Shown: piece after piece, positions 11,977 through 63,152 of the stretch | Layout of the letters: the number at the start of each line of letters is the position of its first letter | Position numbering within the stretch: position 1 is the stretch's first letter | DNA from: Picochlorum sp. SENEW3 | Taxonomy: Eukaryota | Reading direction: 5' to 3' | Assembly (NCBI GenBank): GCA_034226945.1 | Contig: CP120459.1 | Span: 310,001-374,000 of the forward strand | Length of the DNA stretch: 64,000 bases | The notes under the pieces: model-generated | The model's input: only the letters and a program-made list of their open reading frames with translations | What the model was told of the DNA's origin: nothing | Database searches by the model: none | Made by a program: the position numbers and the translations under genes

Positions 11977-14397
11977 ATGCAAGGAAACAACGGAAACGGA
12001 GCAAACCTGCACGGCATGTCATGTCGCGGAAGTTGTCACGACATGGACCAAGCCTCACTTGCATACCACCATACTCTTGCTATGCACTTGATGCATTCCA
12101 TGGGTACTATTTATGGGGCACATTCTCCAGCTGGGGGTTCAGGTAGCAGGGGATGCCACTCTGGATTAGATGCTGCACATGCTGCCCATGGAGCTGATAT
12201 TCATGCTGCCCATGGAATCAATGTCTCGGGAGGGCAAGGATGCCACTCTGGTATGGATGCTGCCCATGGAGGTGATATTCATGCTGCTCATGGAATCAAT
12301 GTCTCGGGTGGATGCCACTCTGGTATGGATGCTGCCCATAAAGGTGATATTCATGCTGCTCATGGAATCAATGTCTCTGGAGGACATGGATGCCACTCTG
12401 GTATGGATGCTGCCCATGGAGGTGATATTCATGCTGCTCATGGAATCAATGTCTCGGGTGGATGCCACTCTGGTATGGATGCTGCCCATGGAGGTGATAT
12501 TCATGCTGCTCATGGAGTAAATGTCTCGGGTGGATGCCACTCTGGTATGGATGCTGCCCATAAAGGTGATATTCATGCTGCTCATGGAATCAATGTCTCT
12601 GGAGGACATGGATGCCACTCTGGTATGGATGCTGCCCATGGAGGTGATATTCATGCTGCTCATGGAATCAATGTCTCGGGTGGATGCCACTCTGGTATGG
12701 ATGCTGCTCATGGAGGTGATATTCATGCTGCTCATGGAGTAAATGTGTCTGGAGGACAGGGATGTCACTCTGGTATGGCTGCTGCCCATGGAGGTGATAT
12801 TCATGCTGCTCATGGAATCAATGTCTCTGGAGGACATGGATGCCACTCTGGTATGGATGCTGCCCATGGAGGTGATATTCATGCTGCTCATGGAATCAAT
12901 GTCTCGGGTGGATGCCACTCTGGTATGGATGCTGCCCATAAAGGTGATATTCATGCTGCTCATGGAATCAATGTCTCTGGAGGACATGGATGCCACTCTG
13001 GTATGGATGCTGCCCATAAAGGTGATATTCATGCTGCTCATGGAATCAATGTCTCTGGAGGACATGGATGCCACTCTGGTATGGATGCTGCCCATGGAGG
13101 TGATATTCATGCTGCTCATGGAATCAATGTCTCGGGTGGATGCCACTCTGGTATGGATGCTGCCCATAAAGGTGATATTCATGCTGCTCATGGAATCAAT
13201 GTCTCTGGAGGACATGGATGCCACTCTGGTATGGATGCTGCTCATGGAGGTGATATTCATGCTGCTCATGGAGTAAATGTGTCTGGAGGACAGGGATGTC
13301 ACTCTGGTATGGCTGCTGCCCATGGAGGTGATATTCATGCTGCTCATGGAATCAATGTCTCTGGAGGACATGGATGCCACTCTGGTATGGATGCTGCCCA
13401 TGGAGGTGATATTCATGCTGCTCATGGAATCAATGTCTCGGGTGGATGCCACTCTGGTATGGATGCTGCCCATAAAGGTGATATTCATGCTGCTCATGGA
13501 ATCAATGTCTCTGGAGGACATGGATGCCACTCTGGTATGGATGCTGCCCATAAAGGTGATATTCATGCTGCTCATGGAATCAATGTCTCTGGAGGACATG
13601 GATGCCACTCTGGTATGGATGCTGCTCATGGAGGTGATATTCATGCTGCTCATGGAGTAAATGTGTCTGGAGGACAGGGATGTCACTCTGGTATGGCTGC
13701 TGCCCATGGAGGTGATATTCATGCTGCTCATGGAATCAATGTCTCGGGTGGATGCCACTCTGGTATGGATGCTGCCCATAAAGGTGATATTCATGCTGCT
13801 CATGGAGTAAATGTGTCTGGAGGACAGGGATGTCACTCTGGTATGGATGCTGCTCATGGAGGTGATATTCATGCTGCTCATGGAGTAAATGTCTCGGGAG
13901 GACAAGAATGCCACTCTGGGCTGGATGCTGCCCATGGAGCTGATATTCATGCTGCTCATGGAGTAAATGTGTCTGGAGGACAGGGATGTCACTCTGGTAT
14001 GGCTGCTGCCCATGGAGGTGATATTCATGGTGCTCATGGAGTAAATGTGTCTGGAGGACAGGGATGTCACTCTGGTATGGATGCTGCTCATGGAGGCGAT
14101 ATCCATGCTTTTCATGGAGTAAATGTCTCGGGAGGACAGGGATGCCACTCTGGTATGGATGCTGCTCATGGAGCTGATATTCATGCTGCTCATGGAGTAA
14201 ATGTCTCTGGAGGACAGGGATGCCACTCTGGATTGGATGCTGTGCATGCTGCCCATGGAGCTGATATTCATGCTGCCCATGGAATCAATGTCTCAGCAGA
14301 CCAGATATGCCAGGTGGATACAGATCAAGATGGAGAAGATGAGGATGCCCCAGCAGACGCAGGTGTTGATGGAGAGGATGGAAAAGATTGCCAATAA
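11977..14397 (+). CDS. His/Gly/Ala-rich tandem-repeat protein (28 x 24/26 aa) with acidic tail; function unknown
   Basis: 806-aa ORF with unique N- and C-termini, TATA and HSE upstream, TGTAA at ~14528 downstream; repeat length variants are all multiples of 3. Confidence 0.8.
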   Translation: MQGNNGNGANLHGMSCRGSCHDMDQASLAYHHTLAMHLMHSMGTIYGAHSPAGGSGSRGCHSGLDAAHAAHGADIHAAHGINVSGGQGCHSGMDAAHGGDIHAAHGINVSGGCHSGMDAAHKGDIHAAHGINVSGGHGCHSGMDAAHGGDIHAAHGINVSGGCHSGMDAAHGGDIHAAHGVNVSGGCHSGMDAAHKGDIHAAHGINVSGGHGCHSGMDAAHGGDIHAAHGINVSGGCHSGMDAAHGGDIHAAHGVNVSGGQGCHSGMAAAHGGDIHAAHGINVSGGHGCHSGMDAAHGGDIHAAHGINVSGGCHSGMDAAHKGDIHAAHGINVSGGHGCHSGMDAAHKGDIHAAHGINVSGGHGCHSGMDAAHGGDIHAAHGINVSGGCHSGMDAAHKGDIHAAHGINVSGGHGCHSGMDAAHGGDIHAAHGVNVSGGQGCHSGMAAAHGGDIHAAHGINVSGGHGCHSGMDAAHGGDIHAAHGINVSGGCHSGMDAAHKGDIHAAHGINVSGGHGCHSGMDAAHKGDIHAAHGINVSGGHGCHSGMDAAHGGDIHAAHGVNVSGGQGCHSGMAAAHGGDIHAAHGINVSGGCHSGMDAAHKGDIHAAHGVNVSGGQGCHSGMDAAHGGDIHAAHGVNVSGGQECHSGLDAAHGADIHAAHGVNVSGGQGCHSGMAAAHGGDIHGAHGVNVSGGQGCHSGMDAAHGGDIHAFHGVNVSGGQGCHSGMDAAHGADIHAAHGVNVSGGQGCHSGLDAVHAAHGADIHAAHGINVSADQICQVDTDQDGEDEDAPADAGVDGEDGKDCQ
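12154..14295 (+). repeat. Coding minisatellite, 28 units of mostly 72/78 bp, with higher-order blocks
   Basis: Unit tgccactctggtatggatgctgcccatggaggtgatattcatgctgctcatggaatcaatgtctc(g/t)gg...; 28 CHSG motifs counted. Confidence 0.97.
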
Positions 14398-14780
14398 TGA
14401 ATGTTCACATCTGAAAATGATTGCGAAATCTCACACGGTTACATGTATGATGGTATCACATGTGATGACTCATCATTTGCTACAGTTGCGTTCGGAGCAT
14501 TGTCACAACATCAAGTTTTCATGAATCTGTAACACTGAATACATGGCAACCATTATAACTAATCTCGATAGAAGCATATACCCTTAAGAAGAATGTACAA
14601 CGAGGCATGAGTTCATCCGTGTCGTGTTCATGTACGAATACGGCAAGCTTGAGCTTGTGGAAGACTTTGGTCTCAGAAGCTGCGCCAAGTGCAGTCTCAA
14701 AAAATTTGCTTTTTTTTCATCTCAAGAACATCCATAGTACTCAAAAATGTTCTTCATGGATATGTGTAACGTTAATTATC

Positions 14781-28578: not shown

Positions 28579-30264
28579 ATGGCCAAGGAGGATCCGAGAA
28601 GCAGCATGCATGCTGCTGCGGATGATACGACCTGTGGACCCACTGAATTAGCTCACGGAGAAGGAAAAAACGATGAACAGGCTGTCAAAAAGGACAGGTT
28701 GGTGAAAGCATTGGATTCTATGATATACATGCCTCATATTAAGGAGATAGGGAAGGATATGGCGGTGCCTGGGCTGATGGTGATGGGTGGGGGACTGAGA
28801 CACAATGCAGTGGGTGATGTTGCCCAACCCGGAGGAGGTGGGGGACATGATGGGAGTCGGAAGCGGGTAGGAAGGCCTTGGGATAGAGGTGAATTGTACA
28901 GTAGATTGCAGACGTTCAAGTCGTTGACGTGGTTTGCAAAGCCACCAAAGATTAATGCACAAGAGTGCGCTCGGCGGGGGTGGGAGAATACTGGAATGGA
29001 TGAACTGACGTGTGAGACGTGTCGGTCGGTGATCAAGTTTCCAGTGAGTTTTCAGGATGATAGTTTTGATGTAGAGCCTGATCAGATGAGGAATGTGGTG
29101 GATTCGTTTGAAAAGAAGTTGACAGAGGCACATGAGACATTGTGTCCGTGGAGGTCCTCTGTGTGCTCCTTGTCCTTGTTTGAATTTCCCAGGCATCTTC
29201 CACAGGCTACTATTGCTGCTGATTTTAAGAGTAGATGTACAGTGTTGAGGAGGTTGCTGTGTCTTCCGCCAATGGCGGAGAGTGGGATGGCACAGTTGGT
29301 GGAGACGGCATCCAAGACTGTTGGCATGTTGAGAGATTTACACGTTGTTTTGAAGAAGGGGGATGCGTGTGCAGCGACGCCAAGGAAAGATTGGGAGGAC
29401 AAGCCGGAGTTCTCCGAGGACGTGTTTCGGACCCAGATGATGAAGATGTTGAGGACACATGTGGTGTCAAATTTTGAGCGTGAGGTGTTCTTGGCACGGG
29501 TGCACCTCATGGCCTTGTGCGGGTGGAGTTTGCGAATATTGAAAGGCGCGAGCACAGGTGATACTGACTTGCAGGACTTACCCCCGTTGCTGCCAGAGCA
29601 TACGGCTCTTCAGTGTACAGTGTGTGGTGCTCGAGTTGGGATGTGGTCCATGTTTGAAGGATGTGCTGCAAAGGCCTTTTCCAAGGCGGCGCTAGCTGAA
29701 AAACGTGCTCCATTGTATCAGAATGATAAAATTTCTTTTAGTATGAACCATCAGGTGGCGATGAATATGACGACCACGATTGCAGGAGGGATGTTACAGC
29801 CAAGTGTGCTTGGTATGGCAGGTGAATCTTCTGGTCCATTTGGAAAATCATCACCAGGAGCTTTCGAGTATGCAACGCCTCCAGCGAAACAGAAAACGTC
29901 CAAGAAACGGTCTTTAGAAGAAGGTACTGACAATACCAAGGCGAAAAAGCAGCACACACAGAGAAAACCATTGTCATCATCCAGTGCACTGTCTCAGTAT
30001 AGGGCAGCGTGCAATGCTGATTTCGACCCTGTTGAGTCCCATCGTCCGTTTTGCCCATGGGTGCACGCGACATCAGTGAATTCTAGTGATAGTCTATGCG
30101 GATGGCAGATCTATCTTGAGAACCTCGTCTCCACCTCTGGAGATGTGTCTGTTGCATCAGCCCTGGCCCACCAGGACGATCACGAAGCAGGCCAGAAGGA
30201 TGCATGGCGTGGAAAGGACGTGTTCCAGAAGGTGCTATCTTCCATCACGCGGAAGAAATCATAA
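28579..30264 (+). CDS. NIPA/Rsm1/Pml39-like zf-C3HC protein
   Basis: RPWDRGELYSRLQTF...WFAKP...CARRGW...CETC...H...CPW; MALCGW; CTVCGARVGMW; FDPVESHRPFCPW. Confidence 0.88.
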   Translation: MAKEDPRSSMHAAADDTTCGPTELAHGEGKNDEQAVKKDRLVKALDSMIYMPHIKEIGKDMAVPGLMVMGGGLRHNAVGDVAQPGGGGGHDGSRKRVGRPWDRGELYSRLQTFKSLTWFAKPPKINAQECARRGWENTGMDELTCETCRSVIKFPVSFQDDSFDVEPDQMRNVVDSFEKKLTEAHETLCPWRSSVCSLSLFEFPRHLPQATIAADFKSRCTVLRRLLCLPPMAESGMAQLVETASKTVGMLRDLHVVLKKGDACAATPRKDWEDKPEFSEDVFRTQMMKMLRTHVVSNFEREVFLARVHLMALCGWSLRILKGASTGDTDLQDLPPLLPEHTALQCTVCGARVGMWSMFEGCAAKAFSKAALAEKRAPLYQNDKISFSMNHQVAMNMTTTIAGGMLQPSVLGMAGESSGPFGKSSPGAFEYATPPAKQKTSKKRSLEEGTDNTKAKKQHTQRKPLSSSSALSQYRAACNADFDPVESHRPFCPWVHATSVNSSDSLCGWQIYLENLVSTSGDVSVASALAHQDDHEAGQKDAWRGKDVFQKVLSSITRKKS

Positions 30265-59406: not shown

Positions 59407-62400
59407 TTAAACCCTTCTTCTGGCTTCCTTGGCAGCAGCAACCATGTTTTTCAAGGATGGAATCACCTCGCTCCATCTCCTTGTCTTGAGTCCACAGTCA
59501 GGATTAATATGAATGCGATGGACGTCGCCTTGGACGATGCCCGCCTGTATGAACGACTCAATCTTGGCCAACATTGTCTCAACTGGAGGAACAATGGGAG
59601 AGTGCACATCATAGACTCCTGGGCCTATATCTCTCCGGTATCCATACGATGCAAGATATTGCATCATTTCGTCAGAAGATCTTGAGTTCTCAATTGTGAG
59701 AACATCGGCTGCATAGCATAAAAGAATGTAAGAATATGAGAAGTGACAAAAAATACAACATTGACGAATTGCTCGTACCATGCAAAGCATCAATGGACTC
59801 CAAAATGTCCTCAAATTCAGAGTAACACAAATGAGTCACAATCTGAACCTCGGGTCTGGCAACGCTGGTTGCCAATCTGAAGGCTTTTGTTGCCCAATCC
59901 AAGTACGCCGCCCATCTCTCCTTCTTCAAAGGAAGGCCTTCCCTGAGAGCAGGCTCGTCAACTTGACAAATGATGCACCCGTTGTTCTGAAGATCGTCCA
60001 CTTCTTCTCTGATGGCAAAACCAATTTGACGAAGCTGTTCAGATCTCGATATATCTTTACGAGGGAAACTCCAATTCAAGATGGTTACTGGTCCAGTGAG
60101 CATACCTTTGACTGGCTTTTTTGTAAGTTTCTGAGCCAGCTGGAATTCATGGACAGTCATGGAGCTTTTTCTGGAGACGTCCTCGTGAATGATTGGAGGT
60201 CTTACGTACCTTGATCCATATGATTGGACCCATCTGCAATATATAGTTGTAAACAGTCATGACACCTTGCAAGTGTCGAGGGCAGGAATCCATGGTACCA
60301 CATACCCGTGATTTGTGAAGGCAAAGCCATCCAATTTGAGGCCAAAGTATTCAACCTATAGTTCAGATAATATAATCCATCGATACAATGTTCCATAACA
60401 TAAACACACGCTGACAAGAAATACATACCATATCAGACCTCTCCGCCTCTCCATGCACAAGTACATCCAAACCAAGTGCCTCTTGAATACCAATGCAGTA
60501 TCCAATCTCGGCAGCAATGGCCTCTCTGTACTCCGTGTCAGAGATTTGCCCCTTCTTATACTGCAGTCTCACTTTTCGAATGGTCGAAGTCTGAGGAAAA
60601 CTTCCGATTGTTGTCGTCGGGAAAGCTGGATACACATGTTGCTTTTTCCTTCTCTCCTCATAGCTCTCAGACCGTGTCACCAAGTGCTCTTCAAATACAG
60701 CCTCTTTCATGGTCCTTCTCCCCAGACAGGGTTCTGCGCAACTGTCAAATCCCTTCTTGAGGGCATTGGATAAAAAAGACAACTCCTCGAGCTTTTGAAC
60801 AGCGAACGACAGCTTTTCTCGAAGGGTTGGATCAAAATTGTCCTCAAGCATGACATCATATGGAACATGTTGCAATGAAGTTGATGTCTGCGGTCGAACA
60901 AACCCATGTGTTATGGTAGTATTGGTCTATGATAGATGGGTAAAATGCTGTTCGTCACGTACCTGAACACAAATAGATTGGCTGTTTCCAAGCAAGCGCT
61001 TCAAAGACAGCAACACATTCATTGCCTCATTGGTATCTTTCCAGACACTCCTTCCATCCACCACTCCAGCACCGAGTCTCTTTGACTGCAGTACATATTA
61101 TATATAATACAGAATTATATATGACAGTTCACACCTTGACTGTGATAAGCACGAGAGATTTTACAGACCTGTGGAAATCCATGTGTGGCAATGAGGGTGA
61201 ACATCTCATTGCCACTTGTAGCTCCAGGAACACCACAAAAATCAAACCCAATGGCATGCACCGGGAGATTGATGACACACTGATACATTGCCTCGGAGAC
61301 GTCATCATAAGGAATAACCAAATGAATCGGCACTTTGTCAGTTGCAAGCCAATGGTATGTATCAGCTGTCACTGCAATGGTGTCTTCAGAGTCAAAGATG
61401 GTGAGACAAGGTTCGTGAACCTGTGACACGCAGACAGAAGAAACCTCAATTTCTTGAAGACACACATTCAAAATAGTAGGATGAAGGGGTTATCGTAATT
61501 ATACACATTTTTTGATAGGTGTTGTGATGATCCCCAACAGGTATCGCACACAGACTTTTTTTTTTCTTCAACACATCAACAGGCTCATATAGGACAAGGT
61601 GTTCCAAGGATATTGATAATTGTTTCGCTGTGATTTTCTCTTGCTGCTGACATGTCAAAAAAGCTCGTATAACAGTACCCTCAAGGATTTGAACCTTGAT
61701 GATCTCCATTTCTGGAGTGCTTTACCAGTCAGCCAAGGGTTCTAGAGCAAACATGCCAACACGCGCTAAGAGTACGCACTCTGGTATGAGCAATCTCATG
61801 TACCAGATAAATCACAGCGAGAAAAATCACACCAAGGAATGACATCACAGATACATGAACACAACAATGGCATACCTGAACTTCCGGCACCCCAAGCTCA
61901 CCAAGCCTGCCCATAAGTTCCACATAATGCGGTATCAACGCCTTGAGTAAGTTCAAGTTCAGAGAATCAAATGACCCTCTGCAGAGATACGCGAGAGTCA
62001 GAGGGCCAAGTATGAGAGGCACAGCCTTGTCCACCCCAATCACCCTCTGCCCTTTCTTCACCTTTTCCAACAAAGGACCCCAATTGGCGTTGGGCATCAT
62101 GTCACCCTCGACATCAGGAGCAAGATGATGATAATTCGTATCGAAATACTTGCTCATGTCCAATGCTGGGCACTCTGGAGTACCTCGAGCACAAGCAAAG
62201 TACTGTTCCAGACCTTGCAAGTGGCTGAATCTGTCAGGGACCAGACCAAGGTACGTCACCGCAAAATCCAACACGTGATCATACAATGTCCCATCAAGGG
62301 CCACCAGATCCACTCCCATGTCCGCTTGTTCCTTCCAAGCGCGGGCGTCAACCTCCTCAGCCGCCAACAGCAAAGCCTCGCCACTCAGGCCACCACTCCA

Positions 62401-62499
62401 GTAGGACTCGAGGGCTTTCTTCATTTCTCGCTTGGATCCAATCCTTGGAAACCCAATCGTCGAAGAACAGTAAAGATGTGATGATGCGATCTGAGACAT
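59407..62499 (-). CDS. METE: Cobalamin-independent methionine synthase, 7 exons, reading frame intact
   Basis: [80 protein letters not shown]; six GT-AG introns checked for phase (intron 1 = 61875-61421). Confidence 0.96.
61674..61742 (-). ncRNA. tRNA-like cloverleaf lacking an anticodon, inside METE intron 1
   Basis: GAACCCT TG GCTG ACTGGTA AAGC A CTCCA GAAA TGGAG ATCAT CAAGG TTCAAAT CCTTG AGGGTAC T: 6/7 acceptor pairs, D-arm with GG, perfect T-arm/B-box, 4-nt loop where the anticodon should be. Confidence 0.75.
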
Positions 62500-63152
62500 T
62501 CTGTCGGTAGTAACGTGTTGTAGGTTTGTTTGATCAGATATCTTGTCTCCACAGAGGACTTGTGATCAATAGAGCAATGAAACGCAAATTTCACTTGAAG
62601 AACACTTGCAGTTTGTATGCGGGTCGTAGAAATTCAGATATTGAATTATAATGTACGCATCGTGAGGCAGATTCAGCCATTATCATCGTGATCTGATCCA
62701 GTTTGATGGCCTGCACATCGACCTCCCTGTAGTTTTATGTTTGATCGGACACCTTGCCATATCGTAGTTTGACACGTGTTCATCCCCTATCAAATGAAAT
62801 CTTGACGGGGTGCCCCCGATGGAAAAAGACCAACTACCTCTTCTCCCATCAAGAGATGGTGTTGAAGGATCAACTACATCATTAATGATGACAGAGCAGT
62901 ATTGTTCTGTTAAAGACATAGGAGCACCAAAATTGCCAATATACGGCTGATTCATTGGAATCTCAGAGGTTACTTTTAAACTATTGCTGTAAAAAGTGAT
63001 ATTTGGATTGGGTTTGAGTCATGAATCATGATAGATCGTACCGATCGCTGAGGTGGTTGTGAAGCACTGCGTCAGTGTCACTCGCCACCGGCACCAATGT
63101 CGGATGTGAGAGCCATCACGTAAATGAGGACTTTTACAATTATCAGGCGTGC

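Follow-up and report, generated by a model that had tools for sequence, protein, structure and literature searches.

A tRNA-like element that cannot decode was found in the first intron of METE, the gene of vitamin B12-independent methionine synthase, in a 64,000-nt stretch of the trebouxiophyte green alga Picochlorum sp. SENEW3 (NCBI GenBank assembly GCA_034226945.1, contig CP120459.1, positions 310,001 to 374,000 of the forward strand). This whole stretch is referred to here as the window, and coordinates follow its own numbering; METE and the element lie on its minus strand. The element, carried on the sense strand of METE intron 1, is a true tRNA mimic without decoding capacity. Comparison with relatives gives us high confidence that it is a conserved and selected mimic acting at the RNA level, not a dead tRNA or a transposon. 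As for what it does, we favor, at a probability of roughly 45% and by analogy with known tRNA-like RNAs, excision of a non-decoding tRNA-like RNA from the METE transcript by tRNA enzymes.

METE exon 1 (62499-61877, minus strand) comprises 207 codons, ends in ...GVPEVQ, and encodes the Meth_synt_1 domain (Pfam PF08267, E 7e-54). Its product shares 99% identity with the Picochlorum sp. BPE23 protein P0177; with the Picochlorum renovo protein from EukProt (P0028), identity is 99% over the matched stretches and 87% in the best local alignment. These values place the window in Picochlorum or a very close relative. Since the NCBI model P0177 splices ...GVPEVQ directly onto VHEPCLT, the bounds of intron 1 are fixed at 61876-61421, supported by tblastn searches with P0177 and P0179. 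The intron is of the GT..AG type, in phase 0, and 456 nt long, compared with ~83 nt for intron 2. The unspliced exon 1 frame terminates at a TGA (61731-61729) within the D arm of the cloverleaf, as an initial annotation made from the sequence had claimed. The P. renovo model fuses ...GVPEVQ to later exon 2 sequence and omits the first part of exon 2 (window 61420-61290), which is present in P0177 and in homologues; the gene predictor seems to have been misled by the long structured intron.

The cloverleaf was recognized by the Rfam tRNA model (RF00005) at 61742-61674 on the sense strand, with 40.0 bits against a gathering score of 29 (E 5.4e-7, model positions 1-71) in a scan of 601 nt. Its acceptor stem (61742-61736 with 61681-61675) forms six of seven pairs, with A2 and A71 mismatched. 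It is followed by a D arm (61733-61719) whose loop carries GG, an anticodon-arm hairpin (61717-61704), a variable loop (61703-61699), a T arm (61698-61682) reading CAAGG-TTCAAAT-CCTTG, and a discriminator at 61674. The anticodon stem, CTCCA/TGGAG, is capped by a 4-nt GAAA loop (61712-61709) in place of a 7-nt anticodon loop. A decoding tRNA has a 7-nt anticodon loop with U33 and a purine at 37, and neither DNA-level example of the element has these features: the window loop is GAAA, and the loop of the orthologous element described below, CATTGCA, has A33 and C37. The earlier proposal of a sense-strand cloverleaf without an anticodon loop in METE intron 1 is thus borne out. No second copy was detected within the 64-kb window by blastn or Rfam scanning, and three Rfam scans (two of the whole window, one of the 601 nt) gave no riboswitch, T-box, or other cis-regulator match.

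General annotation tools handled the element unevenly. ARAGORN reported no tRNA over the whole window and left the cloverleaf uncalled, and two whole-window Rfam scans lacked the tRNA match that the 601-nt scan alone returned; detection is therefore filter-dependent. Together with the P. renovo gene model, these cases indicate that annotation pipelines can miss such elements.

An orthologous element was obtained from metagenomes. Scanning with an exon 1 profile retrieved 216 relatives, and the best 80 were kept; five of these were eukaryote-like (52-57% identity), with a single contig, L004, being informative. Its METE is 52% identical to that of the window in exon 1, is interrupted at the same codon (VPEVQ|VHEP) by an intron of 755 nt, and has its following intron after ...GFPQ, as in the window. 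At positions 1305-1376, L004 carries a sense-strand cloverleaf that has CCCTTGGCTGAC and the T-loop region in common with the window. ARAGORN calls it "tRNA-Gln" despite its A33 and C37; its 7-nt anticodon loop lacks U33. Aligned with the window, 38 of 40 cells are paired, and six of 20 pairs differ on both sides, namely, pair 1-72, three in the anticodon stem, and two in the T stem. Six slid controls gave no double changes at all, and 12 of 500 shuffles reached the observed values. The orthologous conservation that the initial annotation had put forward as a check was accordingly found, with the element at the same site and compensatory changes within it. In three other eukaryote-like loci (L001-L003) the reading frame is continuous across the intron 1 site (VPEVQFHEP) and no element is present, another intron lying ~20 codons on with no tRNA-like match; the sequence of L005 ends before the site. 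A scan of prokaryote genomes gave 79 loci, all bacterial by title, among which L152 (47% identity) contains no tRNA. Downstream of the different eukaryotic METE in L001 (4034-4141) and L002 (2815-2922), on the minus strand, is a G-run/C-run hairpin matching mir-483 at 37 bits against a threshold of 60; these microRNA-family matches probably reflect low-complexity pairing.

Broader, if less exact, sampling came from proteins. A word-indexed search with the exon 1 protein gave 22 proteins among 489 candidates, and an exhaustive representative search gave 1916 matches, the best 150 of which were examined. Many of the closest matches are prokaryote-style open reading frames (ORFs) on algal contigs that cover exon 1 up to (V/A/S)PEVQ and carry on into intron sequence, which shows that these genes have the intron site in common. 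Of 44 ORFs tabulated, 37 enter the intron (24 clusters at 90% identity), five, Picocystis among them, continue straight with no intron at this site, and two (P0049 and P0079) were excluded since the motif is not at the exon end. The element can be read in such tails through characteristic peptides: P-W-L, D-W-L/P, or P-L-A-D frames for the D arm (..TGGCTGA..) and R-F-E-S, W-F-E-S, or V-R-I frames for the T arm (GGTTCGAATCC).

Both arms are encoded in nine of the 24 clusters (the window, L004/P0015, P0016, P0007, P0008, P0014, P0031, P0089, and P0111, of which two are DNA loci). In three more (P0009, P0011, and P0029) the D arm is encoded and the ORF then stops, and another three (P0005, P0010, and P0170 of the P0013 cluster) end in LG or IG, as the window frame does at the D-arm TGA, which is weak evidence. 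In total, 15 of 24 clusters point to the element, through one or both of the D and T arms or a stop at the D-arm TGA. The remaining nine have tails of at most 61 aa and are uninformative, as the element begins 45-113 codons into the intron; in no cluster does a tail longer than this lack the element. The informative clusters represent ~9 lineages that are mutually 46-69% identical in exon 1. In an exon 1 tree, most of them, Picochlorum included, fall in one group of 20 of 38 rows (support 82/85), with the P0013 lineage outside; P0089 and P0111, which are 82% and 59% identical to P0013, lie outside the tree's sampling. Chlorella variabilis, Myrmecia bisecta, Chlamydomonas eustigma, and Haematococcus relatives are represented by proteins alone.

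Within the element, conservation is strongest in the D and T arms. The distance from U8 to T54 ranges from 48 (P0031) through 50 (window, P0089, and P0111), 52 (P0008), and 53 (L004, P0007, and P0016) to 54 (P0014), a variation attributed to the anticodon arm and variable region; between the window and L004 it sits in the anticodon loop. The acceptors of P0089 and P0111 are unlike that of the window in sequence, yet all seven positions are pairable in each. Compensatory changes show that the acceptor stem, the D arm with its GG, and the T arm are held by selection, and that the anticodon arm is only a hairpin of variable length.

Variation among close relatives shows the same restraint. Contigs from four public runs (X3, X10, X11, and X17) were compared over window 61000-62600; substitution positions are complete for X11 only, with nine of 20 in the intron-spanning contig of X17 and most of those of X10 unplaced. 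X11 differs at 36 of 1601 nt. Eighteen of its substitutions fall in the intron, which also has three indel sites; 11 are at 61503-61610 and seven at 61764-61857, and none is in the 153 nt from 61611 to 61763, where the cloverleaf lies together with the inner helix and the closing helix's 3′ strand. With the ~5% rate of the flanks, ~8 would be expected there (Poisson P ~3e-4, for a stretch picked post hoc). The window segment 61000-62600 was also found at ~97-99% identity in runs labeled with several organisms and in gut, lake, and mine-drainage metagenomes, so that either the alga or close relatives are widespread or it is a common companion in other samples.

Further helices enclose the cloverleaf. 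The minimum free energy (MFE) fold of 61835-61620 has -73.9 kcal/mol (z -3.6, matched by none of 200 shuffles) and contains every enclosing helix described in the initial annotation. Adjoining the acceptor is a short helix of GCTC (61745-61748) with GAGC (61663-61666). Next come an inner helix of 11-12 bp, with its 5′ strand at 61750-61760, free of X11 variants, and its 3′ strand at 61646-61656; a side hairpin at 61780-61807; and a closing helix of 12 bp between 61809-61820 and 61625-61636, recovered by blastn as a 12/12 inverted repeat. The side hairpin varies among strains: a change at 61790 in X3, X10, and X17 converts G-C to G-U, and changes at 61787 and 61788 in X11 break one pair. The competing 5′ partner (61819-61830) that had been proposed for the 3′ strand of the closing helix does pair, with one bulge, and this register is the one used in the centroid fold; a switch based on it is a candidate role only.

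To assess the flanks separately, the cloverleaf was replaced by GAAA, the two 100-nt flanks were folded, and the 3′ flank was shuffled 100 times per locus. The window gave an MFE of -62.1 kcal/mol versus -50.9 ± 3.4 for the shuffles (z -3.3, one of 100 as good), and L004 gave -73.4 versus -45.8 ± 4.1 kcal/mol (z -6.8, none of 100 as good). The flanks of the two loci are unlike in sequence apart from a common TGACAT after the element, which in the window is held by the 3′ strand of the inner helix. Complementary flanks of differing sequence at both loci show that the two share an architecture in which a long imperfect stem carries the cloverleaf at its tip. Folds of the whole introns are not significant (z -1.5 for the window and -0.5 for L004), and significance is limited to the local domain and the flank test.

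The element probably has its ancestry in organelles or bacteria. Its opposite strand matched RF04354 (Plastid-ycf2) at 30.5 bits, under the threshold of 65.7. Judged by eye, the printed consensus of this family is the reverse complement of a CAU-anticodon tRNA, and we take the family to lie antisense to plastid trnI-CAU. A search of 2.9 million viral contigs for the D-arm plus T-arm pattern gave a single match, a phage tRNA(CAT) whose D arm, variable loop (ATCAT), and T loop (TTCAAAT) match those of the window; the phage contig (L160, 1-3054) has 11 tRNA genes clustered in 3 kb. Relative to bacterial or plastid CAU tRNAs (tRNA-Met or tRNA-Ile2), the window element has a different acceptor and no anticodon loop capable of decoding. 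It is likely, although tentative on such sequence resemblance, that the element descends from a bacterial or plastid-type CAU tRNA as an old organelle-type copy that was reused. Scans of the window gave no Rfam family specific to the element. The mascRNA/MEN-beta family (RF01684) had no match in the window and scored 14.2 bits in L004 against a threshold of 42.5.

The covariation, fixed site, and fixed strand speak for a function exerted as RNA and linked in cis to METE. The element would act as RNA, either inside the RNA polymerase II (Pol II) pre-mRNA or in the excised intron. Its conserved "top half plus elbow" comprises the features by which RNase P, RNase Z, and the CCA-adding enzyme would recognize a substrate, and these enzymes could release a ~70-nt non-decoding tRNA-like RNA, as with mascRNA or GUT15. 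The length drift of the anticodon arm is the pattern expected if only the top half is read. The flanking stem may insulate the fold and might also keep both halves of the intron together so that splicing completes. The amount of small RNA released would then track METE transcription.

Several observations weigh against excision or loosen the evidence beneath it. Pairing between leader and trailer beside the acceptor is generally unfavorable to RNase P and RNase Z. Such pairing is present at both loci, as GCTC/GAGC in the window and as an extended A-U stem in L004. Contigs of all four public runs pass unbroken through the element, with no joints or ends seen; runs labeled "RNA?" contain intron 1 sequence. 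Both DNA loci have a T run after the element, as would fit termination by RNA polymerase III (Pol III). DNA-level covariation derives from two sequences only, and L004 reached no Rfam tRNA score. The wider pair test, made on back-translated peptides, found 44 of 49 acceptor pairs compatible versus 31-42 of 49 when slid, and 35 of 35 T-stem pairs versus 23-31 of 35, a weak contrast because third codon positions are free. Finally, the nimtRNAs, mitochondrial-origin tRNA look-alikes in introns, are reported as not tRNA-processed in the available part of their description (PMC7722341).

A more ambitious version of excision is a long shot. An ancient plastid-type tRNA(CAU) copy might have become a chlorophyte METE module, excised by tRNA enzymes while the flanking stem holds the severed halves of the intron paired, so that every transcript would yield both the mRNA and a non-decoding tRNA(Met/Ile)-like RNA. 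This RNA, or the state of its S-adenosylmethionine-dependent modification, would signal the supply of methionine and S-adenosylmethionine to pathways that sense tRNA or back to the splicing of METE. If true, methionine synthesis would be under feedback from a eukaryotic tRNA mimic. No evidence was found for the coupling to B12, methionine, or S-adenosylmethionine that the initial annotation had conjectured. Available portions of PMC12538271 place vitamin B12 control of METE in the promoter in P. tricornutum and cite promoter control of METE in C. reinhardtii. METE is key to algal B12 ecology, and any regulatory role of the element would bear on that field.

Among the alternatives to excision, we regard as unlikely, if worth serious attention, an uncleaved splicing element, in which the cloverleaf and its stem stay in the pre-mRNA, bind splicing-associated or tRNA-binding proteins, and raise, lower, or condition removal of an intron whose length is unusual in this genome. 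Conservation of site, strand, and RNA fold would suit this role, as would the complementary flanks, which fall outside any tRNA-sized product, and the length of the host intron (456 nt in the window and 755 nt in L004, compared with ~83 nt for intron 2). Precedents exist in the parts of the two sources at hand: the nimtRNA cloverleaf is required for an increase in splicing and undergoes no tRNA processing (PMC7722341), and the tRNA-like sequence of GUT15 has an inhibitory effect on removal of the intron in which it lies (PMC6152437). Such a role leaves unexplained why conservation falls on exactly those parts that tRNA enzymes read, with the anticodon arm free to drift. The stem, moreover, leaves the splice sites distant from each other, with ~56 and 204 nt of the window intron outside it and more in L004, and the run contigs contain no joints.

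A nested Pol III/TFIIIC unit appears rather improbable. Here the A box in the D arm and the B box in the T arm would direct a short RNA of its own ending at the T run, and/or would act as a roadblock or boundary on METE. The window and L004 both fit the general A-box and B-box consensus, the most conserved parts are precisely the D and T arms, and T runs are suitably placed. In the window a T6 run (61657-61662), which could be a terminator or a U tract, begins 11 nt past the discriminator (X17 has one extra T in it), and T8 runs lie directly at the 3′ end of the element in L004 and in its relative P0016. The tail of P0089, in contrast, permits no run of four T within 14 codons past the element when read by eye, the other tails being ambiguous. 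An autonomous gene also need not hold one intron and one orientation over divergent lineages, and compensatory changes in the acceptor and anticodon stems indicate selection on RNA pairing, not on DNA boxes alone. The complementarity of the flanks would lie outside a Pol III transcript, and according to the accessible text of PMC6152437 the GUT15 tRNA-like RNA is untranscribable by Pol III despite its tRNA likeness.

That the element has no function, as a decaying tRNA gene, a nuclear copy of plastid DNA, or a tRNA-derived short interspersed nuclear element (SINE) that landed in the intron, would agree with its defective anticodon loop, the lack of an ARAGORN call, and its likeness to organelle or bacterial CAU tRNAs, but is largely refuted by its presence at the same site in ~9 lineages, the compensatory changes between the window and L004, the absence of core substitutions against ~5% in the intron flanks, its single copy in 64 kb, and the unbroken passage of the contigs of all four runs. 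Hallmarks of a SINE were likewise missing: no direct repeats were seen around the element, the flanks being an inverted repeat, and the element occupies orthologous sites. The initial annotation had named a tRNA-derived SINE, or want of conservation in orthologous introns, as the outcome that would overturn it; one copy in 64 kb and an element in L004 and in 15 of 24 clusters is the opposite picture.

Four further features were recorded in the window. An antisense small nucleolar RNA (snoRNA)-like match in intron 1 (61519-61574, plus strand; SNORD53/92, C/D type; 22.6 bits against a threshold of 46) lies in the most strain-variable part of the intron and was taken as chance. Two other C/D snoRNA-like matches are sub-threshold, namely, snoR66 at 14693-14761 (minus strand, 26.1 bits against 43) and sR55 at 29749-29807 (minus strand, 22.1 bits against 35). 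An 806-codon ORF at 11977-14397 (plus strand) has no Pfam match and contains a tandem array (~12244-14157) in which identical 12-mers recur every 72 or 78 nt, with ~25 matches.

A full-text literature search turned up no report of a tRNA-like element within an intron of METE. The closest counterpart is the tRNA-like RNA in the GUT15 intron of Arabidopsis, which the available text of PMC6152437 describes as derived from a Pol II transcript, CCA-tailed, and devoid of a canonical anticodon arm. Both are sense-strand intronic tRNA-like sequences of a Pol II gene with no canonical anticodon stem-loop. CCA addition and an effect on splicing of the host intron are established for GUT15 and putative for the METE element. 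The GUT15 host is a long noncoding RNA (lncRNA), in contrast to a metabolic enzyme gene; the part of the GUT15 report at hand describes no long flanking stem, which the METE element has; and the METE element, unlike GUT15, is kept at one intron site over divergent algal lineages.

The nimtRNAs, 281 of which lie in 76 host genes according to the accessible portion of PMC7722341, resemble the METE element as organelle-type tRNA copies in nuclear introns that keep the cloverleaf, although organelle homology of the latter consists of a sub-threshold RF04354 match and one phage tRNA. The same portion reports that nimtRNAs act on splicing through the cloverleaf fold, a candidate activity for the METE element. 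They are of mitochondrial origin and keep canonical tRNA architecture, whereas the METE element, apparently of plastid or bacterial type, is confined to a single gene, and its anticodon arm is degenerate and its flanks form a stem.

RNase P, RNase Z, and the CCA-adding enzyme read the modules of mascRNA and MEN-beta, which share with the METE element a tRNA-like fold in a Pol II transcript and a reduced anticodon arm. Those modules are described as RNase P products in the part of PMC6152437 available to us. They sit at lncRNA 3′ ends, whereas the METE element is intronic and, as noted for RF01684, does not belong to their sequence family. Few tRNA-like modules in Pol II transcripts are known (mascRNA/MEN-beta, GUT15, and nimtRNAs), and none among them has stayed with a single metabolic gene through deep evolutionary time. 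The METE element therefore lends itself well, as a natural system, to studying the effect of a non-decoding tRNA shape within a pre-mRNA, and Cas9 gene deletion has been reported in Picochlorum celeri (available text of PMC10808502). It is set apart from the known modules by its location in the intron of one metabolic gene over divergent algae, by the degeneracy of its anticodon arm, and by an enclosing stem that is conserved.

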